Counted from the stretch's first letter, positions 10,864 to 61,040 are shown. The stretch is DNA of 61,040 nt from a virus (IMGVR_UViG_3300033153_003434:1-61040), one strand, 5' to 3'. Notes: a model not told the origin generated them from the letters alone. Made by a program: numbers and translations.

Positions 10864-13007
10864 TGACATCTTTAGTATATAAAAATAGTTCGACTAGTGA
10901 TAATAAATTAGTTACTGGTGTTGATATTAATAGTAATAACATTCAGATTAGTACTGGTGGTGGTCTTATGGATGGTTATTTCTTTTACGATGCTAGTTAC
11001 CAGTTTACAACAGCTATTAGTGATACAAACGCATTTGATTATTTCAAAAATATTGGAACATTATTTGCTTGTCACTTCATACCAAGTGCTTTAGATGAAA
11101 CGTACGAATTATTTTACCAACATAATAATAAAGCATCTGATGATGACCAATATATAAAAATATACATTCTTGATGGTGATTTAAAAATAGATATAAAGGG
11201 GCAACAAGGTACAACAGCACACACACTTAATACAAAAACAAATTTTATAGATTCTGATGATTTAAATACGAAAGTTTCTATAATAGTTCATATATATGAT
11301 GACGATTTGGGTGCGTTAGATTGGGTTGTACACAAAAACGGTGAAACATCAGTAGGATATAATGATGATGTACCTTTTACGTTTGATATTACAGACCCAG
11401 GTAGATATATAAAATTTGGACAACTTACTGGTTATGCACATGATTTATATATGACTAATATAATTATTAGAGATTTGGGGTTTACATCTCAACAGAAACG
11501 AGATTATCATAATGGTTCATTATTTACAACATCAAGCGAAATTGTATATTATGGCGGTGGTCAATTCACAGATATCGATAACACCATAGTTTATAATAGT
11601 GGTACTGATAGTTCAGTTGGTGATGCAGATTTAACACAAGGTACTGATAGTGGTAACGAAGATGAGTTCTTTATTGATGAACCTTTGGTAGTCAGTGAAG
11701 TTTCTTACCATAAAATGTTTGATGGGGATATTCATAATAATATAATGACAACTGCTAATATTGGGGCTGATTTACTAACAGATGGTAGTAAACCTAACAA
11801 AACATATACTACTGATTATTTAAATGGTCAAATAAATGAAATAAAAGCCGAAGCACTAACACAAGCATTGGTAGACGAAAACAAATCATTTGGATATACT
11901 ATTAATGATGATTATTGTACCGCTTATTTATGTTGCTTGAAAGGCACAGGTGCTGATGAACTTACTTCTATACAATGTGTGTTTAATAATAGATATTATG
12001 ATTCTACACATGGTTATTGTTCACAAGTAAGACCATGTAACGACTCAACAACATGGACTGCTGTTGATACTGAATATATTGGTTATGAATGGATGAATAA
12101 TTTTCAAAGAAAATGGTTTGGAATGTATAAAGAAAATACTTTAGATAGTCATTTACCAGACAATGCGTATTTTGTTGTTAATTGGGCGGATTACGGAATT
12201 GATAATTCTTATCATACTCGTTATGTAGGGGGTTGGAATTTTTATGCAAATACTGTTGTATATAATAATTATCATCATGTTAATATCTTTGATACACACC
12301 ATACAAATAAGTTCTTTGTAGTTGATAACATTGATAATTCTGTTGTTGCCGATAGACATCCCGATATAAGAGTTTCTAACAATGCAGATGATACAAACTT
12401 TTTCCATCAAATAGGTGCAGATGCTCCATATGTATATGATTCACAAGCAACTGCAAGGACAATAGGTGATTCTATTTTTGATAGGTTGAAAGTTGGTAAA
12501 AGTATTGATGCTAATAGTATGATAATACCCGAAGGTAGATATATGGTTAATATGAATTATTCACAGTTTATGAAAAGAGCTACGACATATCCTTGGGATG
12601 AAATACCTTTCAAAAAAATTGTAACTTTGGGATATTTTATATTTAGAGTAGATACAACGACTAATAAATTTAGTGTGTATGATTATTATATAGATTTCAA
12701 CGATGGTGGTGAATTAGATTTAATGGATGTCGATGTAGACGCACTTGAATGGGCAACCGATGAAAATACTTCTTATAAATTTTTCGATATACCATCAGTA
12801 AGTAATGATTTATATATATTCTCACCAATATATTCTAATGTGATTATTGCTGGTAAAACAGGACATTTCCCAACATTAGTAGACCCTAAAGGTACTAATA
12901 ACAAAGGGTATTATTTTGAAGGTAAAGTACCACTTTTTGAAAATGAAGATAAATTAGTACCAAAAACAACAGCAAGATTTACAATCAAAAAAATAGAGGA
13001 TTTATAA
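10863..13007 (+). CDS. Virion/fibre protein, N-terminal concanavalin-A/LamG-like beta-sandwich likely
   Basis: 714 aa, acidic and aromatic-rich; translationally coupled to upstream gene. Confidence 0.5.
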   Translation: MTSLVYKNSSTSDNKLVTGVDINSNNIQISTGGGLMDGYFFYDASYQFTTAISDTNAFDYFKNIGTLFACHFIPSALDETYELFYQHNNKASDDDQYIKIYILDGDLKIDIKGQQGTTAHTLNTKTNFIDSDDLNTKVSIIVHIYDDDLGALDWVVHKNGETSVGYNDDVPFTFDITDPGRYIKFGQLTGYAHDLYMTNIIIRDLGFTSQQKRDYHNGSLFTTSSEIVYYGGGQFTDIDNTIVYNSGTDSSVGDADLTQGTDSGNEDEFFIDEPLVVSEVSYHKMFDGDIHNNIMTTANIGADLLTDGSKPNKTYTTDYLNGQINEIKAEALTQALVDENKSFGYTINDDYCTAYLCCLKGTGADELTSIQCVFNNRYYDSTHGYCSQVRPCNDSTTWTAVDTEYIGYEWMNNFQRKWFGMYKENTLDSHLPDNAYFVVNWADYGIDNSYHTRYVGGWNFYANTVVYNNYHHVNIFDTHHTNKFFVVDNIDNSVVADRHPDIRVSNNADDTNFFHQIGADAPYVYDSQATARTIGDSIFDRLKVGKSIDANSMIIPEGRYMVNMNYSQFMKRATTYPWDEIPFKKIVTLGYFIFRVDTTTNKFSVYDYYIDFNDGGELDLMDVDVDALEWATDENTSYKFFDIPSVSNDLYIFSPIYSNVIIAGKTGHFPTLVDPKGTNNKGYYFEGKVPLFENEDKLVPKTTARFTIKKIEDL

Positions 13008-19351: not shown

Positions 19352-21715
19352 ATGGGATTAGAACAAAGACCAGGAATTACAATAACGGAAAATTTGATAT
19401 CATCTGTGGATGACACAAATCCTTACATACCAACAGTAGCTTTTTTATCTGCTGAAAGGGGTGTGGGTAATAAAAATACTACTGTAACAGACCAAGTAGA
19501 TTTTATTAACAAATTTGGATATCCTACTGAATATAATTATAAAACTTGGTATAATATATATGAATATTTAAGATATACTAACTATATAAACGTTATGCGT
19601 GTTGTTGACGCTGACACCTATCAAAATTATGGTATAGAATTTGGAATGTACTTTGATGGGGATAGCAACTTGCAAGTTTTAAATCGTGTGGAATTAACAA
19701 ATTATTATAATGACGATATAGCAATTAACACATTACAAAATTATACAATTGATAATGCACATACAGAATATACAGTTATAAACAGAGAAGCTACACAAAC
19801 ACAAGATATAGCAGTAAGTTTTTGTACGACAGAAGATGAATATGATAGTTCTATTACAACAGAAAATGATATTATACTAATTGAAGATGTTTGGGATGAT
19901 ATACCAACACAACTTCTAAGTGGAATGGAACTCCACCAAGTATACATATTAAATACCGATGGTACATATACTATTAAAGCAATCTCATATTTAACAGATG
20001 AAGACATACAAGAAGTATTAACAGTTGAAGATGTAAGTGGTAATTATTTAACACAAATAAAAATAACTAATAATAGTGAATTGTGGGATGGTGGAAGTTT
20101 TGCACATACTTCATTATATTTTAGAGATACTAAAAAAAGCGAATTAAATAACGAACCATTTGGTATTAGTGGTGTTTATGGTTCTAGTGGTATACCAGTT
20201 GGTGATGATGCTGAAAGTGGGGATACTGATATTTATATAGTATTAACTGAAAATGTATCACTATACGATACTACAGGAAAAGTGATATTTTATGATAAAG
20301 ATGTTGATATTACAGCAACGAGTGTGGCACAAGGTTATTTAAAATCCGAAGAATTATATATTACTATAACAGGTGGCGATTTAAGTTATGCTGATAGTGC
20401 CGACACATACGAATATGTTGCTAATGGTGGTACCAGTGGGTTGGGTTATCCTACATGTACAAGAATCGTATACGATAGTAAAATACAAAATAGTACCGAT
20501 ATTAAAACATATAGACAACTTGTACAAGATGTAGACTTTAATAAGAATTTTATTTTCTTGGTGTTTAAAAAGTATTCTGGTAAGTTTTCTTTAATGGAAG
20601 TATATGAAGTTGCCAAAGAAAGAGATACATCAATACACGCTATGTATAAACGAAATTATTGTGAAGATGTCATTAATCAAAATTCAAAATATGTTTATTT
20701 TGTTAAAACACCAGATTATATATATTTAGATACGGTAACAAGTAACAACTCCATAACAGAATTAGTATTAGAAGCAGATAACGATACTACTGATTTTACA
20801 GATTTAAATACATATTCAACTTTTGAAACCGCTACGAATTTCTATAGAAACACTGATAATATTTCTTTTAAGTATCTATTAGGAATAGAACTTAATGATG
20901 GTACAAATAATAATATGAACTTAGCACCTTTAATTGCAAACGATAGAAAAGATTGTATCGCAATTTTAAGTCCTTGGAATGAAAATGATTATCTTTCTAC
21001 CTATAATACAATGACATCAACTATTCTACACGATTTTGGTATTAAATACAATCCTATATATGTTGCCGAAAATAACACATACACAATTGTTTATGATAAT
21101 ATGAAAATGATTTATTCTGAATTTTTAGAAGAATTTATATGGGTACCTACAATTGGTGATGTTGCTGGTATATATGTGGTGGAAGATACCGTGAGTGTTT
21201 ATTCTGCTTGTGCTGGGTACAGAACACAACCAATTAAGAATGTATTAAAAATGTTACATACCGATGTATCAGATGATAATAGAGATTTATTAAGTTATAA
21301 CAGTATAAACCACATAATTAAAAATTATGAAAATAATGAATTCTATCTATATGATATTTTGATGTATCATGATAAAGATGTTCTTACAAAAAGATTAAAC
21401 ATTAGACGAACAATAAATGAATTTAAATACAGATTAAGATTATTATTAAAACCATACATATACGAATTCAATAGCTATAATTTAAGACAAGAAGTTTCTA
21501 CAAGTATAAACACTACAATTTTAAATATGATAGATGCTGGGGCTTTATACGATGGTTATGCTATATGTGATGGTTCAAATAATTCACCAAACACTATAAA
21601 TCAGAATGAATTACATATACAGATAGCATTACAGCCTACACAGGTTATAAGGCAAATTCATATTGAAATAAATATTGAAAAACAAACGCTTAATATTAGC
21701 GAAGCGGAGTTATAA
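19352..21715 (+). CDS. gp18: Tail sheath protein paralog A (T4 gp18-like)
   Basis: RPGITITE start, FGYPTEYNY, VMRVV, DRKDCIAILSP, WVPTIGDVAG, RLNIRR, ICDGSNNSPNTINQNEL. Confidence 0.9.
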   Translation: MGLEQRPGITITENLISSVDDTNPYIPTVAFLSAERGVGNKNTTVTDQVDFINKFGYPTEYNYKTWYNIYEYLRYTNYINVMRVVDADTYQNYGIEFGMYFDGDSNLQVLNRVELTNYYNDDIAINTLQNYTIDNAHTEYTVINREATQTQDIAVSFCTTEDEYDSSITTENDIILIEDVWDDIPTQLLSGMELHQVYILNTDGTYTIKAISYLTDEDIQEVLTVEDVSGNYLTQIKITNNSELWDGGSFAHTSLYFRDTKKSELNNEPFGISGVYGSSGIPVGDDAESGDTDIYIVLTENVSLYDTTGKVIFYDKDVDITATSVAQGYLKSEELYITITGGDLSYADSADTYEYVANGGTSGLGYPTCTRIVYDSKIQNSTDIKTYRQLVQDVDFNKNFIFLVFKKYSGKFSLMEVYEVAKERDTSIHAMYKRNYCEDVINQNSKYVYFVKTPDYIYLDTVTSNNSITELVLEADNDTTDFTDLNTYSTFETATNFYRNTDNISFKYLLGIELNDGTNNNMNLAPLIANDRKDCIAILSPWNENDYLSTYNTMTSTILHDFGIKYNPIYVAENNTYTIVYDNMKMIYSEFLEEFIWVPTIGDVAGIYVVEDTVSVYSACAGYRTQPIKNVLKMLHTDVSDDNRDLLSYNSINHIIKNYENNEFYLYDILMYHDKDVLTKRLNIRRTINEFKYRLRLLLKPYIYEFNSYNLRQEVSTSINTTILNMIDAGALYDGYAICDGSNNSPNTINQNELHIQIALQPTQVIRQIHIEINIEKQTLNISEAEL

Positions 21716-34056: not shown

Positions 34057-36540
34057 ATGAAATATGCAAGTAGCATTGAATTTAATGAAAAAAATGTAAA
34101 GGCTGTTCAAAGAGGTAGTGCCGAGCTAGACACTACCATTGGTATGCTTTTAAAAGCAAACTTTGGACCATCTGAAACATTAGTAGAAATCACATCAGAA
34201 TCCGAGTTGGTGGAAACGTTTGGATATCCTACTGAATATAACTACTTAGATTGGTTTAACGCTGCAGGATTTCTAAAACACTCTTCATCATTACATGTGG
34301 TAAGACCACTTTCAAGTATAACAAGTGCTAAAAATGCTTGTTTAATATTTGGAGATGGAGCACAACCTGGTGATAGTACAGCTACTAAACTATATAATGA
34401 ACAAACAGCAAACTTATCGTTAGAAGATAGCACAATAACACCTATCGATTCTGGCAAATTAAACATTTATAATAAATGGGCTGGTAATTTAAACGATATA
34501 TCAATAATGATGTGTACTTCTGAAACTGAATGGACTGAAAGTATTTCTGGTAGAGATGTATTTGACGAAACTATAGCTTTAGAATCTACTATATATACAA
34601 GAAGTACATTACCAACAATTGTAGAAGTTGTTGAAGGTGTAACGATTTCACATTTCAAAAACAAAGACAAAGTTGTTGTAGCAACACCTACAATAACTGG
34701 CGATGCTGTAGTTGAAATGGGATACTATATATATTATGCTAATTATACAACTACAACAACTGCTGAATGGGTAGCAACTACAAACCAAATAACTGATGAT
34801 GATAGAGTATTCGTAACTAGTAAAAATTTAGCTTATACATTCGACCACACATTTACAAGCGCAACTGCATTTAATAATTATTTAACCGATACAACAGAAG
34901 AAATTTATGCTAGTGAAGTAGCATTACCCGATGAAAGTGATTATAATTATAACGATAGAGTTCTTGTGAGAACTAATGATACACCTGATGTGTTTACTGT
35001 ATGGTATAATAATGAAGGTACTTGGACAACAACAGGAACAACTTTAGCAAATGCTGATAAGATATTTGAAATAAAAACACACAGCTATTCCGATTTGACT
35101 ATAGGTACTGGCGGTGGTGCTGGTACTGATACTTTAACTTTTACGCCTGATGCTGTAAGTGAAATTGATAATGCTGATAGCATGACACAAGATACAGATA
35201 TTACAATTTCAGATGAAATTTTAATTAAGAAAGATGCTAATGGTATAATTACAAATTCTGTGGTTAAATATATGGATGTAGGAATGTATAATAAAAGTGA
35301 TTACAGCCCTTTAACATATAGAGACATATTACCAACAAAACCAGATTTTGCACATAATGAGATTGGTTTAGTAGTTCTTAGAACAACTAGAGATGGTTGG
35401 TATCATGTAGAAGAAACATTTGTTAATTCGTTAACAAGTACTTCATTAAAAACTAACAGCAAATCAAATTATATAAGTACCAATGTAAACAATTATTCTA
35501 ATTTAATTTATATGAAAGCAAGTTCAGGTTTAAACACTTATGATTATATTCCAGATTTGTATAATAGTGTTTACTATACTAATATAGAACTTACAAGTAC
35601 TGACGATGTCGATTATTCTAACATAACAGATTACACAACACTATACAATGTTGCTACTGGAGTTTTTGGTAAAAATGGATATTTCCAACCTGAAATTTTA
35701 ATAGGTTATGATTGTGGTGATTCAACACTTAATAGTGGATACCTTGATGCAATGTCTTTAATAGCAGAAGATACTGGAATGTCTTTAGCTGTTGTTGGGG
35801 CTACAAGGTCAACACCAGGTCAAACAGAAACAGAAGCAAACGATGAAATTATCGAGAACTTAGGTAATGATAGAGATAACACATCATTTGGTGGATTAAC
35901 AGAATTCAACACTTATACATTCCCTATTGGTACTATGAAGAAATTCTATGACCAATATAACGATAAATATCGTTGGTTATCTGTAAATGGTGATGTAGCT
36001 GGTATGATGGCATATAACGATGCTATAAACGGACCACAATCAGCAGTTGCTGGTTATAATAGAGGTGAATTTACGAACTATGCACGAATGTTGTTTGATG
36101 CAAGAATAAACCAAAACTCTTTAAGTAGAAATGGTATAAATGCTATTATTAAAGAGGTTGATGATGGTAACTACTATTTGTTTGAATATTTAACAAACAC
36201 TACTATGGATGAAATTACAAAAGAAGCCAATGTTAGAAGAATGGTCATCAAATTTAAACATTTACTTAAAAATATATTAAAAGGTAATTTCTTTGAGTTT
36301 AACAATAGAGAAACCAGAGATATCACACTATACCAAATATCTGGAATATTTGAAAAATATAAAGCAAATGGTGGTTTACATGATTATAAACTTATTTGTG
36401 ATGAAACTAATAATACGGCTGAAAGAATAAATGCTAATGAGTTTTATCTGGATATACGACTACAACCTAACAGATTAATTAAACATATTACAATCAATAT
36501 CATAAATTATGATATGGGTTTAAATATTAAAGAACTATAA
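34057..36540 (+). CDS. gp18: Tail sheath protein paralog D (T4 gp18-like), closest to paralog B
   Basis: FGYPTEYNYLDWFNAAGFL, YDQYNDKYRW, ANVRR, ICDETNNTAERINANEF. Confidence 0.92.
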   Translation: MKYASSIEFNEKNVKAVQRGSAELDTTIGMLLKANFGPSETLVEITSESELVETFGYPTEYNYLDWFNAAGFLKHSSSLHVVRPLSSITSAKNACLIFGDGAQPGDSTATKLYNEQTANLSLEDSTITPIDSGKLNIYNKWAGNLNDISIMMCTSETEWTESISGRDVFDETIALESTIYTRSTLPTIVEVVEGVTISHFKNKDKVVVATPTITGDAVVEMGYYIYYANYTTTTTAEWVATTNQITDDDRVFVTSKNLAYTFDHTFTSATAFNNYLTDTTEEIYASEVALPDESDYNYNDRVLVRTNDTPDVFTVWYNNEGTWTTTGTTLANADKIFEIKTHSYSDLTIGTGGGAGTDTLTFTPDAVSEIDNADSMTQDTDITISDEILIKKDANGIITNSVVKYMDVGMYNKSDYSPLTYRDILPTKPDFAHNEIGLVVLRTTRDGWYHVEETFVNSLTSTSLKTNSKSNYISTNVNNYSNLIYMKASSGLNTYDYIPDLYNSVYYTNIELTSTDDVDYSNITDYTTLYNVATGVFGKNGYFQPEILIGYDCGDSTLNSGYLDAMSLIAEDTGMSLAVVGATRSTPGQTETEANDEIIENLGNDRDNTSFGGLTEFNTYTFPIGTMKKFYDQYNDKYRWLSVNGDVAGMMAYNDAINGPQSAVAGYNRGEFTNYARMLFDARINQNSLSRNGINAIIKEVDDGNYYLFEYLTNTTMDEITKEANVRRMVIKFKHLLKNILKGNFFEFNNRETRDITLYQISGIFEKYKANGGLHDYKLICDETNNTAERINANEFYLDIRLQPNRLIKHITINIINYDMGLNIKEL

Positions 36541-53525: not shown

Positions 53526-53610
53526 ATGATTATGAAAAAGATAAAATTTGACATATTAAGTGATAACTTTTATAAATAAGTATATAAGACTTAATTATAG
53601 GAGTTTAAAA

Positions 53611-54471
53611 ATGAAGAAGCATAATATTGTATATCAGATAACTAATTTGATTAATGGTAAAATATACATTGGGGTTCATACTACAAATAAAATAAAAGAT
53701 AATTATATGGGTAGTAGCAAAAAAATGAAAAATGATATCAAAAAGTATGGAAAGAATAATTTTAAAAAAGAAATTCTTTTTAATTTTGATTCTAAAGAAG
53801 AAATGTTTGATATAGAAGAAAAAATTGTTAATGAAGAATTTATTCAAAGAAAAGATACCTACAATCAACACACTGGTGGAAAAGGTGGGTGGGAACATAA
53901 TATCGGGTGGGTGTGTGTAAAAGATAAAAATGGTTGTAAATATAGAATTAGAAATGACGACCCAAGATATTTAAGCGGTGTATTAGTACATCATTTAAAA
54001 GGTACTGTAACAGTAAAAGATAAAAATGGTAATACAATGAGAGTTTCTACAAATGACCCAAGATATATAAATGGTGAATTGGTTCATAACTTAAAAGGAA
54101 CTATAACATCAAAGGATAAAGAAGGAAATATATCTCAGGTTTCTAAAGACGACCCGAGATATTTAAGTGGTGAATTAGTTAGTGTTATTAAAGGAACTGT
54201 TAGAGTTAAAGATGAAAATGGTGCGTGTATTAGTGTATCTACTGACGACCCGAGATATTTATCAGGCGAATTGGTATTTGTTAATACAAATAGAAAACAA
54301 ACAGAAAAAACAAAAAAAGCAATTGGAATAAAAAATAGAAAAAATAATTTAGGTATGATATGGATATTAAATAAAGAAACAAATGAAAAGAAAAGAATAA
54401 AAAAAGAAAAACTTCAAGAATGGATATATAAAGGTTGGATAAAAGGTAGAAAAATTAAAAAAAAGACTTGA
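53611..54471 (+). CDS. GIY-YIG (Seg-like) homing endonuclease with four C-terminal repeats
   Basis: IVYQITNLINGKIYIGVH..YMGS..KYG..FKKEIL..E..YN; repeats VKDKNG..DDPRYLSGELV; TATAAATA at 53571 and AGGAG RBS. Confidence 0.88.
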   Translation: MKKHNIVYQITNLINGKIYIGVHTTNKIKDNYMGSSKKMKNDIKKYGKNNFKKEILFNFDSKEEMFDIEEKIVNEEFIQRKDTYNQHTGGKGGWEHNIGWVCVKDKNGCKYRIRNDDPRYLSGVLVHHLKGTVTVKDKNGNTMRVSTNDPRYINGELVHNLKGTITSKDKEGNISQVSKDDPRYLSGELVSVIKGTVRVKDENGACISVSTDDPRYLSGELVFVNTNRKQTEKTKKAIGIKNRKNNLGMIWILNKETNEKKRIKKEKLQEWIYKGWIKGRKIKKKT

Positions 54472-56096: not shown

Positions 56097-56390
56097 ATGG
56101 AAAATGTTATGAAATTACCAATAAATTATGATGATACTCATTGGACTATAAGAAAAAGAGTAAGAGAACAATATGTAGAAAACCAAAACGGTAAATGTTG
56201 GTTTTGTGGTAATAATTTAGATGATGCCCCTACAGAAGAAATTGAGGAAGCTTATATAAACAGACGTTTGTTTCCATTGCATTTTTTCGATACTCCAATA
56301 CATTTACATCATAATCATGATACAGGAATGACAATAGGTGCAATACATTGTAGGTGTAACGCATACTTATGGCAATATAAAGGAGAATAA
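56097..56390 (+). CDS. Endonuclease VII-like (His-Me finger) small protein
   Basis: QNGKCWFC..LHHNHDTGMTIGAIHCRCN. Confidence 0.75.
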   Translation: MENVMKLPINYDDTHWTIRKRVREQYVENQNGKCWFCGNNLDDAPTEEIEEAYINRRLFPLHFFDTPIHLHHNHDTGMTIGAIHCRCNAYLWQYKGE

Positions 56391-56406: not shown

Positions 56407-56688
56407 ATGAAGAAAAGTTTTATAGTAAAACGTGGCGAAAAAATGGGTTACGATGGTAAAAGTTATGAACAAGGTTTTTTGGATACTTTTGGTGATGTTT
56501 ATGAAAATTGTATTATTAATGGTTTAGATATAACAGGAAAAATTGTAGCAGTGTTGATGAATACTGACGGTATTCTTCAATATAATGTTAGATACCTTTT
56601 AAATGGAGATTTCATAACTAATTGGTTATATGATTATGAAATAGAGATATACTACTTAAAAAAAGAAACAGGAGAAAAAAATGTTTAA
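56407..56688 (+). CDS. Hypothetical protein
   Basis: Start MKKSFIVKRG after GGTGGTG RBS. Confidence 0.55.
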   Translation: MKKSFIVKRGEKMGYDGKSYEQGFLDTFGDVYENCIINGLDITGKIVAVLMNTDGILQYNVRYLLNGDFITNWLYDYEIEIYYLKKETGEKNV

Positions 56689-57148
56689 TGACACGTTCGA
56701 TGCTGTAATAACAGCAGTATCAGCAGGAACAAAGAATGTAAAGAATGAAGAAGGAACTAAAGAAGTTAGGGCGGTTTGTAAATTTAAATTGGAAACATCA
56801 GCAATAGACTACGATTCTATTACAGAATTTGACACAAGTGTTGGTGCTACTATATTAAATATACAACCAATGCCTTTTAAAATGGTTGATTTTGGCGACA
56901 TGAGTGTGTATGGTATGGGTGTTGACTTGTTTGGAATGGATGATGAAACACAATTAGCATCGGAAGCACCAGACGCTACTTATATTAATGTAAATATAAA
57001 AAATCTTAGAGTAAAGAATGATAATGATATACCAATTTTTACTTTTAGTTTGGAAATGCCAATAGAAACATCTACAAAATTCTTGTTTAATAACATGAAA
57101 AAAGATGTAATGTTCAAGTTTTTTAAGGCTAATGTGAAAAAAAGTTAA
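56681..57148 (+). CDS. Hypothetical beta-rich protein
   Basis: 155-aa ORF, AGGAG RBS. Confidence 0.65.
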   Translation: MFNDTFDAVITAVSAGTKNVKNEEGTKEVRAVCKFKLETSAIDYDSITEFDTSVGATILNIQPMPFKMVDFGDMSVYGMGVDLFGMDDETQLASEAPDATYINVNIKNLRVKNDNDIPIFTFSLEMPIETSTKFLFNNMKKDVMFKFFKANVKKS

Positions 57149-57156
57149 AAAAAGAC

Positions 57157-57185
57157 TTGACTTTGGTTTAAAAATTGGTTAGATT
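57157..57185 (+). promoter_or_regulatory. Sigma70-type promoter for the RNA cluster
   Basis: TTGACT-17 nt-TAGATT. Confidence 0.65.
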
Positions 57186-57249
57186 GTATTCAGTTCGTTG
57201 AAATAGAAAAATTATCAGATAAAAGAAAGTATAATAATGCCTCCTTTAA

Positions 57250-57302
57250 GGGATACACACAGCAATACCTTTTCTAACAGACAAAAAGAAAAAAGTATCC
57301 CG
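57250..57302 (+). ncRNA. ACAGCAA-stem RNA element, copy 1
   Basis: GGGATAC-ac-ACAGCAA...GTATCCC-G. Confidence 0.6.
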
Positions 57303-57311
57303 TAACTATTT

Positions 57312-57397
57312 GGTGTTGTCGTCTAATGGAAGGGCTAACACCCGAGGACCCTACGGTTTTCATCCGAGAGATGCAGGTTCGAATCCTGCCAACATCA
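57312..57397 (+). tRNA. tRNA-Glu(UUC)-like with enlarged D-loop
   Basis: Acceptor GGTGTTG/CAACATC; loop TTTTCAT; T arm GCAGG-TTCGAAT-CCTGC. Confidence 0.7.
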
Positions 57398-57439
57398 CAA
57401 ATAGGCATTATTATAATACCTTATAACCTCCTTTTATAA

Positions 57440-57502
57440 GGAAAACACACAGCAAACAAAAACTCTTGCCTACAAAGCAAAAATAGTTAATATTGTTTTC
57501 CG
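57440..57502 (+). ncRNA. ACAGCAA-stem RNA element, copy 2
   Basis: GGAAAAC-ac-ACAGCAA...GTTTTCC-G; internal hairpin TTGC-CTACAAA-GCAA. Confidence 0.6.
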
Positions 57503-57514
57503 TTAAGTTATAAA

Positions 57515-57589
57515 AGACTGCACACAGCAAACACATTATATTTAATTAGATAAATAAAATAATAAAATAATAATAATAATTGCAGTCTG
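57515..57589 (+). ncRNA. ACAGCAA-stem RNA element, copy 3
   Basis: AGACTGC-ac-ACAGCAA...GCAGTCT-G. Confidence 0.6.
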
Positions 57590-57617
57590 AACTAATATTA
57601 AAAGTTAATATAAAAAA

Positions 57618-57740
57618 AGGGTGAAAACCCTGGGTTCCTACACTAGTAGGTGGTGATTACTGACCGAAAGGTTTGTGAGACCCGTTTTGCCAATTTCGTT
57701 AAAAATTGGTTGGTGGAGATGGGGTAAGCGATTATCCCCA
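57618..57740 (+). ncRNA. Candidate multi-hairpin structured RNA, unknown family
   Basis: GC-rich; hairpins cctac/gtagg, acc-gaaa-ggt, ccaattt/aaattgg, tgggg/cccca. Confidence 0.45.
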
Positions 57741-57779
57741 CTTTTACATGCCTGATAATTTTTATAAATAAGAATATAT

Positions 57780-57855
57780 TGCGGGGTAGACCAGTTGGTT
57801 AAGTCGGTAGCCTCATAAGCTACGCATTTCAGGGGTTCGAATCCCTTTCCCGCAA
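57780..57855 (+). tRNA. tRNA with CAU anticodon (Met or Ile2)
   Basis: Acceptor TGCGGGG/TCCCGCA; GTAGC-CTCATAA-GCTAC; TTCGAAT T-loop; TATAAATA at 57763. Confidence 0.9.
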
Positions 57856-57881
57856 CTAAGAACTAATAACAAGGATTAAAA

Positions 57882-58022
57882 ATGAAGAAAACTAAAAAAC
57901 CTAATATTCTAAAAGAAGTAGTTGGTGAACCAACTAAAGGTAGAATACTAAACGAATCAGAAGAAAAAGTTGTAGATAGAAACAAGAAAAAGAAAATAAT
58001 TAAAGAAAAGAAAACAACTTAA
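57882..58022 (+). CDS. 46-aa basic peptide with three [IL]xE motifs
   Basis: AGGA RBS; MKKTKKPNILKEVVGEPTKGRILNESEE...IIKEKKTT*. Confidence 0.55.
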   Translation: MKKTKKPNILKEVVGEPTKGRILNESEEKVVDRNKKKKIIKEKKTT

Positions 58023-58135
58023 ACAAAAACAATTATAAATAAAGGTATATGATGAAAAATAGTAAAACATATTATAGTGAAGCGGAGAACACAATGTAAG
58101 AGTTTTGTCTATTTATTTTATACCAAAAATTTATT

Positions 58136-58165
58136 AAAGCTCTGAACATTTCAGGGCTTTTTTTT
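58136..58165 (+). terminator. Intrinsic terminator after a 16-codon ORF, upstream of tRNA-Ser
   Basis: aaagctctgaa-cat-ttcagggcttt followed by T tract. Confidence 0.7.
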
Positions 58166-58183
58166 ATTTGGGGCTGTAATAAA

Positions 58184-58268
58184 GGAAGAACGGAAATAGG
58201 TGTATCACACTCCCTGCTAAGGAGTCACTCGTGAAAGCGAGTTGAGGGTTCGACCCCCTCTTCTTCCT
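58184..58268 (+). tRNA. tRNA-Ser(GCU)
   Basis: Acceptor GGAAGAA/TTCTTCC; ACTCC-CTGCTAA-GGAGT; long variable arm; T arm GAGGG/CCCTC. Confidence 0.88.
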
Positions 58269-58296
58269 CAAATTGAAATAGAATTATAATTATAAT

Positions 58297-58379
58297 TGGT
58301 AGGTATGCAAGTAGTCAAAGCAATCGGTCTGTAAAACCGCCGCCTTCGGGATTCGTGGGTGCATGTCCCACCCTACCAA
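58297..58379 (+). tRNA. tRNA-Tyr(GUA) with atypical T-loop
   Basis: Acceptor TGGTAGG/CCTACCA; CGGT-CTGTAAA-ACCG; variable arm; T-loop TGCATGT. Confidence 0.8.
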
Positions 58380-58385
58380 CAAATC

Positions 58386-58476
58386 GGGGATAAAGGGTAC
58401 TGATGGAAGTACTTTATTCTGACAAGAATAAAAACAGCAATTAAAAATTAAGTGGGTTCGATTCCCACTATCTCCG
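58386..58476 (+). tRNA. Atypical tRNA-like RNA (GAC-containing 8-nt loop, G3:U70, ACAGCAA in variable region)
   Basis: GGGGATA/TATCTCC acceptor; D stem GTAC/GTAC; TTATT-CTGACAAG-AATAA; T arm GTGGG-TTCGATT-CCCAC. Confidence 0.6.
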
Positions 58477-58495
58477 CTAATAATTAAAATAATAC

Positions 58496-58524
58496 TTGAC
58501 ATTATACAAATAAAGTCTTATATT
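58496..58524 (+). promoter_or_regulatory. Sigma70-type promoter
   Basis: TTGACA-17 nt-TATATT. Confidence 0.72.
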
Positions 58525-58555
58525 GTTATAGTTAATTGAAATAGAATGAATATAA

Positions 58556-58649
58556 GGGATACTTACAGCAAACAAAACAAGTGCTATTGGTTAGCAATCT
58601 TTCTTAAAAAAAGACTAAACGGTTCAATTCCGTGTTATATAGTATCCCG
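58556..58649 (+). ncRNA. ACAGCAA-stem RNA element, copy 4, enclosing D-, anticodon(UAA)- and T-arm-like hairpins
   Basis: GGGATAC-tt-ACAGCAA..TGCTA-TTGGT-TAGCA..TCTTT-CTTAAAA-AAAGA..ACGG-TTCAATT-CCGT..GTATCCC-G. Confidence 0.7.
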
Positions 58650-58656
58650 ACTTTAT

Positions 58657-58729
58657 GCTCCCATCTTATAACTGGTTAGTAAATGCGGTTTTCATCCGCA
58701 TAATCGGAGTTCGAGCCTCCGTGGGAGTA
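58657..58729 (+). tRNA. tRNA-Glu(UUC)
   Basis: Acceptor GCTCCCA/TGGGAGT; TGCGG-TTTTCAT-CCGCA; T arm CGGAG-TTCGAGC-CTCCG. Confidence 0.88.
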
Positions 58730-58735
58730 CACATG

Positions 58736-58772
58736 AAATAACCAAGATATACAACACATCTTGGTTATTTTT
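58736..58772 (+). terminator. Terminator hairpin after tRNA-Glu
   Basis: aaataaccaagat/atcttggttattt 13-bp stem plus T tract. Confidence 0.65.
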
Positions 58773-58870
58773 GTTCGTTAATATATATTATTTTTAAGAA
58801 ACTTTAAATCATTAAGTAACCTAATGGTTCAATTTTATAAATAAGTATATAAACTATTTAAGGATTGAAA

Positions 58871-59965
58871 ATGAAGTGTAAAAAATGTGGTATAGAAAAT
58901 GATGGTTCTTTTGGTTCAGGAAAGTTTTGTTCGAGAAAATGTGCTAATAGTAGAACTTGGACAGACGAAGATAAACTAAAAAAAAGTATATCTGCTAAGA
59001 ATTCCGAAAAGGTTAAGAAAGCCAATAACATAAACGTAATTCTCCGAATAGGAAAACAATCAGTAGAACGAATAATCAAACACTGCCCTATTTGTGGGAA
59101 AGAATTTAAAAGAATACCATCTAAAGAATCTGTATATTGTTCTAAAAAATGTTGTAATAAAAATTCAGGTGGTTATAGAGAAGGAAGCGGTAGAAGTAAA
59201 TCAGGATATTATAATGGGGTTTATTGTGGTTCTACATATGAATTGGTTTGGATAATATATAGATTAGACCACGATTTAACAGCTAATAGGTTTGATGGTT
59301 ATATATTATACGGTAAAGATAATAGAAAATATTTTCCTGATTTTATAGATGATGATACCGTTATAGAAATAAAAGGTTATGTTACCGAAAAAACCAAACA
59401 TATAATAGAACAAAAGAAAAAAGCAGTGTTGAGAGAAGGATATGATTATAAAATTCTTTTTAAAGTAGATTTAAAGGATATGTTTAAATGGGTTAAAGAT
59501 AATTATGATTATAAAAGACTTGCTGAATTGTATGATGATTATAAACCTAAATACGAATATGTTTGTTTAACTTGTGGTGTAAAATTTAGTGTAGATAAAA
59601 AAAGAAAAACCGAAAGAGTTTTTTGTTCTAAAAAGTGTATAAGACCTATTAATACTAAAGTTCTTAATGGGTTAAAAGGTAAAACATACGAAGAAGTGTT
59701 TGGTGAAGAAAAAGCTAAAGAAATAAAGAAAAAATTATGTGAATCAATTAAAAAAGAAAGAATTTTACATCCGAGAAAATGTTTAGAAGAAACAAAAGAA
59801 AAAATTAGACAAAAACTTATCGTCACACATATAAATAATTGTAAACAATGCGGTGTAGAATTTACAACAAATGGTGATAGAAAAAGAAAAAAGTTGTGTG
59901 ATAATTGCGGGTTTAAATATACTAATAAAAAATATATTAAAAAAGAGCTTGACATTATGATGTAA
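58871..59965 (+). CDS. Multi-Zn-finger PD-(D/E)XK homing-type endonuclease within the tRNA cluster
   Basis: CKKC..FCSRKC, CPIC..YCSKKC, STYE..YFPDF..IEIKG, further CxxC fingers; TATAAATA at 58836. Confidence 0.78.
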   Translation: MKCKKCGIENDGSFGSGKFCSRKCANSRTWTDEDKLKKSISAKNSEKVKKANNINVILRIGKQSVERIIKHCPICGKEFKRIPSKESVYCSKKCCNKNSGGYREGSGRSKSGYYNGVYCGSTYELVWIIYRLDHDLTANRFDGYILYGKDNRKYFPDFIDDDTVIEIKGYVTEKTKHIIEQKKKAVLREGYDYKILFKVDLKDMFKWVKDNYDYKRLAELYDDYKPKYEYVCLTCGVKFSVDKKRKTERVFCSKKCIRPINTKVLNGLKGKTYEEVFGEEKAKEIKKKLCESIKKERILHPRKCLEETKEKIRQKLIVTHINNCKQCGVEFTTNGDRKRKKLCDNCGFKYTNKKYIKKELDIMM

Positions 59966-59977
59966 AATGCTTATATT
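59949..59977 (+). promoter_or_regulatory. Sigma70-type promoter
   Basis: TTGACA-17 nt-TATATT upstream of tRNA and tmRNA. Confidence 0.72.
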
Positions 59978-59991
59978 GTTAATGTTATATC

Positions 59992-60065
59992 GCGGGTGTA
60001 GAGTAGTGGTCAAACTCATCAGATTTTCATTCTGGGAAGCGGGGGTTCGAATCCCCTCACTCGTA
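59992..60065 (+). tRNA. tRNA with UUC anticodon (Glu) on a dissimilar body
   Basis: Acceptor GCGGGTG/CACTCGT; D stem GAGT/ACTC; TCAGA-TTTTCAT-TCTGG; GGGG-TTCGAAT-CCCC. Confidence 0.82.
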
Positions 60066-60146
60066 CTAAGGCTAAGTAACTCCTCTTCTTATGAATGAAA
60101 CTTAGCTAATGTTCTTTGAAATAGAAATTAATCCTAATTAAAAATT

Positions 60147-60503
60147 GGGGGTGTTCAGGATTCGACAGATTTGAACGAAGTATGATAAATCACTTCGAAG
60201 CTTGAGGGTAGCTTCGTTAATATAACCCTCACATAAGATAAATGCAAATTATTCTTATCAAATGGCTGCCTAAAAGGTGGCTCAATCTTTATAATAGTAT
60301 TCGCTTCCCGCTATGTAAAAGATTGCCGTAAGAGGAAGATAGCTAACTAAATTTTCATGTTTAATATTTAGCGAACTTTTAAAACATGACGTCTGAGGAA
60401 ATTTGCTCGTTTAACAAACTTGGGCTGTAAAGGAAATGAGATATGAGTGTAGAGTTTACATATAACGCATATTTGGACACGGGTTCAATTCCCGTCACCT
60501 CCA
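60147..60503 (+). ncRNA. ssrA: tmRNA, predicted tag ANYSYQMAA*
   Basis: 5' GGGGGTG..GGATTCGAC; acceptor with G3:U70 (GGGGGTG/CACCTCC-A); tag ORF 60244..60273; 3' GGACACGGGTTCAATTCCCGT. Confidence 0.92.
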
Positions 60504-60523
60504 CAACTATATAAACTATGGAA

Positions 60524-60577
60524 GGAAAGCATACAGCAATTAAATGGTTAAGAAGTTCGATACTTTAACGCTTTCCG
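60524..60577 (+). ncRNA. ACAGCAA-stem RNA element, copy 5, with T-loop-like hairpin
   Basis: GGAAAGC-at-ACAGCAA..AAG-TTCGATA-CTT..GCTTTCC-G. Confidence 0.62.
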
Positions 60578-60599
60578 TTTTATTTTTATAAATAATAGT

Positions 60600-61040
60600 A
60601 TGAAAAGTTTTAGTTTATTAGATGATTACAGTGTAATACTTGAAGATTTTTATGATGTTGTTAAACATAAAAAGAAATGGCACGATTTAGAACGACCAAA
60701 TATAAAATCTAAAATAGTAGATGATGATGGTATCAGGCAAAATATATTCAACTTGGTTGATTTTGCGTATAAAAAATCTTTAAATGCACCACATGTTGGT
60801 GTAAAAAGTTCTAATGATGTGTTAGGTTCTGGTTATGATTATTGGGAAGCTATAGATGTAGATGATAGACCTGATGCCGATGCTGTTGTTTTTGGTCATA
60901 GACGATATGGTATAAAAATATCAGGAATAGGGCATAATGGTAATATTATGGCTATACGATATTTATTAGACAAATTAGTGAAAATATTAAGTAAAAAAGG
61001 ATATTGGATAGAAGCATCGTTAAAAGTTGCTAAAGCTCTA
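60600..61040 (+). CDS. Partial (3'-truncated) protein with leader, possibly GNAT-like fold
   Basis: TATAAATA at 60587; MKSFSLLDDYSVILED..LVDFAY..GIGHNG..LSKKGYWIEAS; open to window end. Confidence 0.6.
   Translation, partial: MKSFSLLDDYSVILEDFYDVVKHKKKWHDLERPNIKSKIVDDDGIRQNIFNLVDFAYKKSLNAPHVGVKSSNDVLGSGYDYWEAIDVDDRPDADAVVFGHRRYGIKISGIGHNGNIMAIRYLLDKLVKILSKKGYWIEASLKVAKAL

Follow-up and report, generated by a model that had tools for sequence, protein, structure and literature searches.

The DNA analysed here is a 61,040-nucleotide (nt) stretch of viral sequence (IMGVR_UViG_3300033153_003434:1-61040; "the window" hereafter means this whole stretch), in which a cluster of transfer RNA (tRNA) genes is interspersed with short elements that combine a 7-bp stem with the heptamer ACAGCAA. 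Five such intergenic elements and a sixth member at 58386-58477 are, we found, part of a family of small RNAs that is widespread among phages and has gone unannotated, and whose existence as a real family we hold to be nearly certain. Drawing on sequence comparison and a modelled protein fold, we assign a probability of roughly 0.7 to the reading that these RNAs are Y-RNA-like partners of a Ro60-like ring protein of the DUF2828 family.

The five elements have a common layout: AA and a 7-nt stem strand come first, then two nt and ACAGCAA, and after 29-70 nt of interior the perfect Watson-Crick complement of the stem strand is followed by a G. A first-pass annotation, made from the sequence alone, had described them in these terms, and a sequence script found all the coordinates and the + strand to be correct (Table 1) and the perfect 7-bp stems and the AA / ACAGCAA / G frame to hold in all five. 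For the heptamer 6.4 sites are expected in the window; 21 are present, a number that 0 of 100 shuffles reached, and the stem plus G was found at 5 of the 21 sites, that is, at exactly the five elements; at one further site (13388) a chance complement is followed by T. As a null, each position of the window was treated as a mock site, of which 0.26% qualified by having a perfect complement plus G within range, and 5/21 against this background corresponds to P = 2.3e-9. When the window region was compared with Rfam, the five copies gave no match to any family, whether the gathering threshold or E <= 10 was applied. This includes the tRNA model (RF00005); ARAGORN calls a tRNA inside copy 4 only. 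A match to the Dictyostelium Class I RNAs (18 bits, E 8.4) was rejected as chance, though that family also consists of a stem plus a motif.

The same design recurs in many other viral contigs. A sweep with a degenerate pattern of the 5' half, in which the 3' complement was not part of the query, returned 119 stretches; the 3' complement and G were present at 58 of 457 ACAGCAA sites (123 sequences), about 44 of the 58 being consensus-like by eye, often with several per contig. We built a covariance model, R1, from the 7-bp helix (P1) and its flanking sequence only, seeded with eight copies from other contigs and one from the window. Its seed alignment (A3) holds nine copies of near-equal length; the MAFFT alignments A1 and A2, in which the 3' stem was split, were dropped. 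R1 recovered the five window copies at 28.6-52.9 bits, four of them from outside the seed, with the next window match at 14.9 bits, and found 41 copies across 100 sources. The first-pass annotation had argued for RNA structure from the covariation of five stems and had proposed such a model as a check on other phages. Its argument is borne out in the larger alignments by compensatory changes: P1 is paired in 99.6% of cells in the 41 copies, with 6 of 7 pairs altered on both sides, and in 100% of cells in 102 further copies linked to DUF2828 genes, with 7 of 7 pairs covarying, both alignments being fitted to the model, which favours pairing, and the seed-independent pattern counts being in agreement. 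The covariation score was reached by 0 of 500 shuffles, and slid registers pair in only 30-60% (33-60% for the 41 copies). Moreover, pair 1 is often G-U (in 26 of 40 distinct rows of the first alignment and 30 of 92 of the second), in keeping with an RNA read from the + strand. Among the 102 gene-linked copies neither CAGC nor the 3' G varies, which is partly due to how R1 was built. A conserved second helix within P1 was considered and is not claimed here, as a helix of at least 5 bp occurs in 57% of 115 copies against 44% of shuffled ones (maximum 53%) and its register is not fixed. Literature searches, which included ACAGCAA and DUF2828 and had supplementary tables outside their scope, returned no description of this RNA family.

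At the 13 loci examined, the copies belong to phage tRNA clusters, share the strand of the tRNAs and frequently stand 1-7 nt off the end of a tRNA, and in whole contigs they are grouped in one or two places. In two complete contigs the array has in its middle a gene of ~500 codons, whose product matches Pfam DUF2828, DUF7788 and vWA. The association was measured from both sides. In a sample taken by way of the RNA, DUF2828 is encoded by 11 of 14 element-bearing contigs (10 above the Pfam cut-off, and G004 below it) and by 4 of the 4 rated at least 90% complete; this sample includes near-identical copies in three contigs (G012-G014). The controls were 17 contigs from chance matches of the same pattern, and 2 of them encode DUF2828, one of which proved to contain R1 matches. 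Fisher's exact test on 12/3 against 1/15 gave p = 3.9e-5, a rough value that is uncorrected for the relatedness of the phages and includes some near-identical contigs. The other sample consisted of 80 DUF2828 loci fetched by protein similarity alone, and here R1 gave 102 matches in 49 loci, 102 of 102 on the strand of the gene. With a strict pattern, the heptamer in these loci was counted 390 times on the + and 65 times on the - strand, the open form (the layout of the five elements) 149 times on the gene strand and 5 times on the opposite one, and either the open form or the capped form described below was present in 66 of the 80. A search of cellular genomes turned up no more than two DUF2828 loci. 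Co-occurrence with TROVE or DUF2828 genes, which had been suggested as a check, was thus positive in the relatives, where a same-strand DUF2828 gene adjoins the elements.

A tblastn search found DUF2828 in 705 named phage records, under labels such as "RNA-binding protein", "vWFA protein" and "hypothetical". Listeria phage LMTA-94 has only three R1 matches in its genome, all directly upstream of the DUF2828 gene, and an RtcB-type ligase gene lies 1.3 kb downstream of the latter. Mycobacterium phage OhShagHennessy has only two genome-wide, directly downstream of an "RNA-binding protein" (DUF2828) gene, at a locus where ARAGORN detects no tRNA, so that the link is with the gene itself and goes beyond tRNA clusters. 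In Escherichia phage fjerdesal (Felixounavirus), ACAGCAA/TCAGCAA pattern matches lie between tRNAs just downstream of a "vWFA protein" gene; R1 gave one weak match there without filters (21.3 bits, E 0.046) and none in a whole-record search at E <= 0.5. The motif is kept among phages whose DUF2828 proteins share only ~30-35% identity.

We then consider the protein. An alignment of nine DUF2828 sequences has an invariant DxSxS motif, and an AlphaFold model of a DUF2828 protein reached a mean predicted local distance difference test score (pLDDT) of 76.9 and a predicted template modelling score (pTM) of 0.73. When the model was compared with the PDB by Foldseek, the ten best matches were all Ro60/TROVE proteins (E 2e-7 to 1e-4), with those of Thermus phage phiLo (9KOP and 9L5Y) best, joined by frog and human Ro60 and Deinococcus Rsr. 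The alignments with Ro60 extend over ~520-590 columns with TM-scores by target of 0.35-0.61, and vWA/MIDAS domains rank next. A sequence search of the PDB with the DUF2828 protein did not detect the likeness to Ro60. We describe DUF2828 as a predicted Ro60-like ring protein, with a TROVE-like ring and a vWA/MIDAS domain.

The RNAs themselves point to the YrlA class of bacterial Y RNAs. Two long relatives are matched by the Rfam YrlA model (RF02553) at 39.8 bits (E 2.9e-5) and 35.1 bits (E 6.9e-4), below its gathering score of 69, and the alignment spans the T arm, a capped acceptor, the D arm and the closing stem, beginning just after the ACAGCAA-type motif. The first-pass annotation had made the novelty of the elements depend on Rfam; the five window copies match nothing there, and it is only the long relatives that do, weakly and below threshold. 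Like YrlA, the family has paired ends next to a short conserved motif, a tRNA-like domain in its long members (T arm, capped acceptor, D arm), a same-strand gene of Ro60 fold within a few kb in the relatives, and several different copies per genome. Unlike YrlA, it has ACAGCAA after a 7-bp helix and a 3' G, its linked protein family is DUF2828 (PF11443) and not Pfam TROVE, most of its copies are short and have no tRNA-like domain, and it includes a capped, permuted form within tRNA-shaped genes.

Three published systems bear on this comparison. The survey by Chen et al. 2014 gives GNCGAAN0-1G as the defining motif of YrlA, places the known Y RNAs near rsr on the same strand and is limited to genomes annotated with a TROVE protein (PMC4201824). 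The Ro60 of Thermus phage phiLo is reported to bind two upstream RNAs through a stem plus CGAA (PMC12135203); these RNAs, Yrl1 and Yrl2, resemble ours in being small, in carrying a stem plus a short motif and in lying by a phage gene of Ro60 fold (just upstream of it in phiLo), and they differ in that they carry CGAA and their binding was measured, whereas the motif here is ACAGCAA and binding would follow by analogy. The Felixounavirus protein Bas63 gp130 is, according to a preprint, Ro60-like, encoded directly upstream of tRNA genes and able to counter the ppl defence, and its authors guess that some of those tRNA genes are Y RNAs (10.1101/2024.10.10.617714). Its layout is that of fjerdesal, to which we liken it by layout alone; the preprint identifies no RNA, whereas our candidates are the unannotated elements between the tRNAs.

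A further precedent is phage T4, whose stable RNAs C and D are small non-tRNA RNAs encoded among the tRNA genes and matured with them. Our elements resemble them by description, as putative small non-tRNA RNA genes within a phage tRNA cluster, and we know of no Ro60-like partner of RNAs C and D.

Several observations weigh against a partnership of these RNAs with DUF2828. In the window region the YrlA model has no match at E <= 10, and the GNCGAAN0-1G motif is absent from the family, every copy having ACAGCAA or a one-base variant instead. Three of the window stems have A-U at pair 3, where 99 of the 102 gene-linked copies have G-C. Fragments G007 (56% complete), G009 (48%) and G012 (3%) bear elements and have no DUF2828 gene, in G004 and G005 the gene is far from the copies (by more than 20 kb for some in G005), and 14 of the 80 DUF2828 loci show neither form by the strict pattern; the relatedness of the phages, already stated for the Fisher test, counts on the same side. 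Finally, the partner is unproven in the window, whose 61 kb contain no match to PF11443, PF05731 or A5; the first-pass annotation, which had noted that no Ro60 gene was visible, was right to the extent that no Ro60, TROVE or DUF2828 match exists there. The record is half a genome, and the DUF2828 gene of this phage would lie in the missing half. The open reading frame (ORF) at 60600-61040 was examined as the start of such a gene and rejected, as BLASTP gave no similarity. The Y-RNA-like, YrlA-type reading that the first-pass annotation had offered is supported by the adjacency of DUF2828 in relatives, the Ro60-like fold model and the sub-threshold YrlA matches.

The sixth member, which the first-pass annotation had overlooked, has its ACAGCAA at 58434-58440, inside the tRNA-like gene 58386-58477. 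This gene is tRNA-shaped, with an acceptor stem, a D-like arm and a T arm, and where the anticodon arm would be it carries the module, folded into a capped hairpin: TTATTCT (58414-58420), the loop GACA (58421-58424), AGAATAA (58425-58431), AA and ACAGCAA. Here the stem complement stands upstream of the heptamer, which is a permuted topology of the module. The Rfam tRNA model matched several "tRNAs" of 114-118 nt beside elements in relatives; these have extra sequence inserted after the D arm and before the anticodon or T side, running in the order 3'-type P1 strand, short loop beginning with G, 5'-type strand, two bases and ACAGCAA or a one-base variant. In the 80 DUF2828 loci the strict pattern found 46 capped forms on the gene strand against 0 on the opposite one, and the loop begins with G in 42 of the 46. 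Long open copies begin their tRNA-like part with a T arm, continue with an acceptor stem that a short linker caps (CCA is encoded in some cases) and close it with a D arm; because of this order, the open and capped forms are circular permutations of one design, with P1 in the place of the anticodon stem. In Aeromonas phage PX29 (NC_023688.1; L246 7913-8029), a 117-nt tRNA-Leu annotated as two joined pieces contains a capped P1 hairpin plus ACAGCAA, and its "intron" is probably the capped module. Two other observations were made outside the window: an Rfam tRNA match across 194 nt with a long insertion (L188 124-317, 43.2 bits), and, within the tRNA cluster of L014, a related contig, a stretch (10956-11120) that resembles HEARO RNA at 51.7 bits, short of the cut-off of 83.

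The permuted form bears on the best-placed alternative, namely that the elements are processing or stability modules of the tRNA cluster, in which P1 and the G mimic the acceptor stem and discriminator for RNase P, RNase Z or a host factor while DUF2828 is a mere neighbour. The array-like placing of copies 1-7 nt from tRNA ends, a 7-bp stem followed by one conserved base, and the occurrence of copies in the window and in three other fragments that have no DUF2828 gene are all as this explanation would have them. However, as a capped internal hairpin the module offers no possible RNA end, and a G that comes first in the loop is not a discriminator there; moreover, the OhShagHennessy copies adjoin the DUF2828 gene where ARAGORN finds no tRNAs, and in two named phages every genome-wide match adjoins it. 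To our knowledge, an invariant single-stranded heptamer is not a determinant for RNase P or RNase Z. We consider this explanation improbable.

The position of the copies relative to the gene raises a second alternative, by which they are cis-acting operators in the leader of the DUF2828 messenger RNA, serving self-control by the protein or by another factor, and not free RNAs. As many as 86 of the 102 R1 matches precede the gene, and at 26 loci the end of a copy is no more than 300 nt away from it. Some copies nevertheless lie 1-6 kb from the gene or after it, or more than 20 kb off (G005); a genome holds several diverged copies, many of which have tRNA-like cargo or sit within tRNA-shaped genes, and the six members in the window have no DUF2828 gene nearby. 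We rank the operator explanation slightly lower still.

What lies inside the module varies widely. A census of 123 distinct consensus-like open copies (38-135 nt, median 66) found an anticodon-arm-like hairpin in 55, against a mean of 7.8 and a maximum of 17 in 200 shuffles of the interiors, and a T-loop-like motif in 18, against a shuffled mean of 0.2; the commonest mimicked anticodons are UUU (12) and UGA (9). The label of tRNA mimics, which the first-pass annotation had given to all, thus suits this part of the family and not the rest. A tRNA-like domain is present in some long relatives (T arm, capped acceptor, D arm), in window copy 4 in normal order, as a D-like arm, a UAA anticodon arm and a T arm (ARAGORN tRNA-Leu(taa), 58572-58641), and in permuted form at 58386-58477; it is absent from window copies 1, 2, 3 and 5, of which copies 1 and 3 have no tRNA part at all. 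As for the tRNA parts that had been described in single interiors, those of copy 4 were found by ARAGORN and the CUACAAA loop of copy 2 is present, while the T-like hairpin of copy 5 is weak. The anticodon-arm-like hairpins are what would be expected if the elements were free-standing decoys that absorb anticodon nucleases or tRNA-modifying enzymes, with ACAGCAA serving folding or stability only. Against this, over half of the copies have no such hairpin, the module is conserved while its cargo is not, and the linkage to DUF2828 is left unexplained, so that we give the decoys poorer odds again. Least credible is the view that the elements have no RNA function and are either tRNA pseudogenes in decay or repeats that act at the DNA level, as recombination or homing sites. 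Homing-endonuclease-like genes do occur in and near the clusters and the interiors resemble tRNA debris, but the interiors drift whereas compensatory changes preserve the pairing of P1 in almost all copies, the G-U pairs and the strand bias (149 vs 5 and 46 vs 0) suit RNA and not duplex DNA, and the motif is retained across phages with distant DUF2828 proteins.

If the RNAs are Y-RNA-like partners of the DUF2828 ring, the pattern of conservation suggests how they might work. The constant module is the 7-bp P1, the G after its 3' strand, and the two bases plus ACAGCAA after its 5' strand, and the rest is variable cargo, which may be missing altogether or consist of a hairpin like an anticodon arm, a complete cloverleaf or a permuted tRNA-like domain of the YrlA type. 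The module is most likely the platform by which the RNA docks on the phage DUF2828 protein, with P1 as the putative protein-binding site; the 3' G, being kept either as the last base or as the first base of the loop, would be read by a partner rather than act as a processing signal. During infection the tRNA-like cargo could then gate the ring, or link it up with other RNA enzymes or with targets. The elements would be transcribed and undergo processing of the tRNA type. Candidate functions of the complex are RNA quality control, RNA repair, the capture of host nucleases and counter-defence, RNA repair being included because an RtcB gene lies nearby in one phage (LMTA-94). We hold as doubtful the bolder proposal of an adaptor-RNA kit, in which the module docks on the DUF2828 ring and the cargo, whether it mimics a particular anticodon arm or a whole tRNA body or is absent, steers the ring to different tRNA-targeting defence enzymes of the host or to damaged tRNAs. 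If it were true, the arrays would amount to a system for anti-defence or RNA repair that can be programmed, and Bas63 gp130 would need these RNAs for its ppl counter-defence.

Table 1. RNA elements of the window and the features of the gene cluster that holds them.
Feature	Position	Strand	Description and evidence
Element 1	57250-57302	+	P1 GGGATAC/GTATCCC, AC, ACAGCAA, 29-nt interior with 6-bp hairpin, 3' G; R1 38.4 bits
Element 2	57440-57502	+	P1 GGAAAAC/GTTTTCC; interior 4-bp hairpin with 7-nt loop CUACAAA; R1 32.8 bits
Element 3	57515-57589	+	P1 AGACTGC/GCAGTCT; A+T-rich interior, no tRNA part; R1 52.9 bits (copy in model seed)
Element 4	58556-58649	+	P1 GGGATAC/GTATCCC, TT, ACAGCAA, cloverleaf-like interior; R1 36.0 bits
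Element 5	60524-60577	+	P1 GGAAAGC/GCTTTCC; one weak T-arm-like hairpin inside; R1 28.6 bits
Capped member	58386-58477	+	ARAGORN "tRNA-??? (gaca)"; Rfam tRNA 27.7 bits (cut-off 29); hairpin scan; fold
RNA cluster context holding the elements	57157-60506	+	ARAGORN, Rfam, consensus promoter scan
tRNAs of the cluster	57312-57397, 57780-57856, 58184-58269, 58297-58379, 58657-58730, 59992-60066	+	
Transfer-messenger RNA (tmRNA)	60147-60506	+	Rfam 144.7 bits; tag peptide ANYSYQMAA
Promoter-like sites, strong	58496-58524, 59949-59977	+	11/12 consensus; consensus scan
Promoter-like site, weaker	57157-57185	+	9/12 consensus; consensus scan
HNH-endonuclease-like ORF, 366 codons	58865-59965	+	PHROG 1271, E 5e-15; no Pfam match

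The window is a fragment of a tailed phage with a G+C content of 29.7% and a completeness rating of 50%, and it encodes a large terminase, a gp23-like capsid protein and two sheath-like proteins, whose genes stand apart at 19352-21715 and 34057-36540 (+; PHROG 23, E 3e-34 and 1e-46). The + strand from 57150 to 60600 is an RNA gene cluster with six tRNAs (called by ARAGORN and/or Rfam) and a tmRNA, and element 5 starts 18 nt past the latter. The first-pass annotation had placed the elements behind strong promoters; of the five, copy 4 alone is directly behind a strong promoter-like site. The ORF at 58865-59965, inside the tRNA cluster, is probably a homing endonuclease, and the cluster is closely preceded by a GIY-YIG gene (53560-54471) and an endonuclease VII-like gene (56097-56390).

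Other features of the cluster were seen as well. The 11-mer TTGAAATAGAA occurs four times (57198, 58273, 58536 and 60116, +) against 0.32 expected, a count that 0 of 100 shuffles reached, and is confined to the RNA gene cluster; two copies lie ~12 nt past promoter-like -10 boxes, and the 11-mer may mark transcript starts or serve in processing. The intergenic segment 57618-57750 (+), which lies after element 3 and before tRNA-Met, is richer in G+C and folds well (-44.7 kcal/mol, z -3.2); Rfam gave nothing for it beyond a weak wcaG match (24 bits, E 0.16), and it is possibly another small RNA. The 86-nt tRNA-like gene at 57312-57397 (+; Rfam 41.4 bits) was missed by ARAGORN, has an extra pairing of the D region with the T region in its fold and does not contain the ACAGCAA module.

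The only match in a named phage was a tRNA-Glu, 79% identical, of Cellulophaga phage phi4:1, whose tRNA cluster has no ACAGCAA element. Protein scans of viral contigs with the ORF at 56681-57148 and with the capsid protein gave no relatives, and the scan with the 60600-61040 ORF gave two distant loci, both without tRNAs or elements. In metagenome contigs the exact pattern of the 3' end of the window was absent, and a protein scan gave a single 1.2-kb contig.

Ro60 and its Y RNAs are a conserved and poorly understood RNA quality-control pair, and a defined family of RNA partners would fill unannotated gaps in phage tRNA clusters. The family also accounts for phage tRNA calls that look odd or "intron-containing", among them 58386-58477 and, in PX29, the 117-nt tRNA-Leu. 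For the study of RNA architecture, its single module in two circularly permuted forms is an experiment of an unusual kind, made by nature. It turns the published guess that a Ro60-like counter-defence protein works with Y RNAs into specific sequences to mutate, and its carriers include cultured phages of E. coli K-12 and M. smegmatis, in which such experiments are feasible. With this family, the question of why large phages encode RNAs that look like tRNAs becomes open to test.

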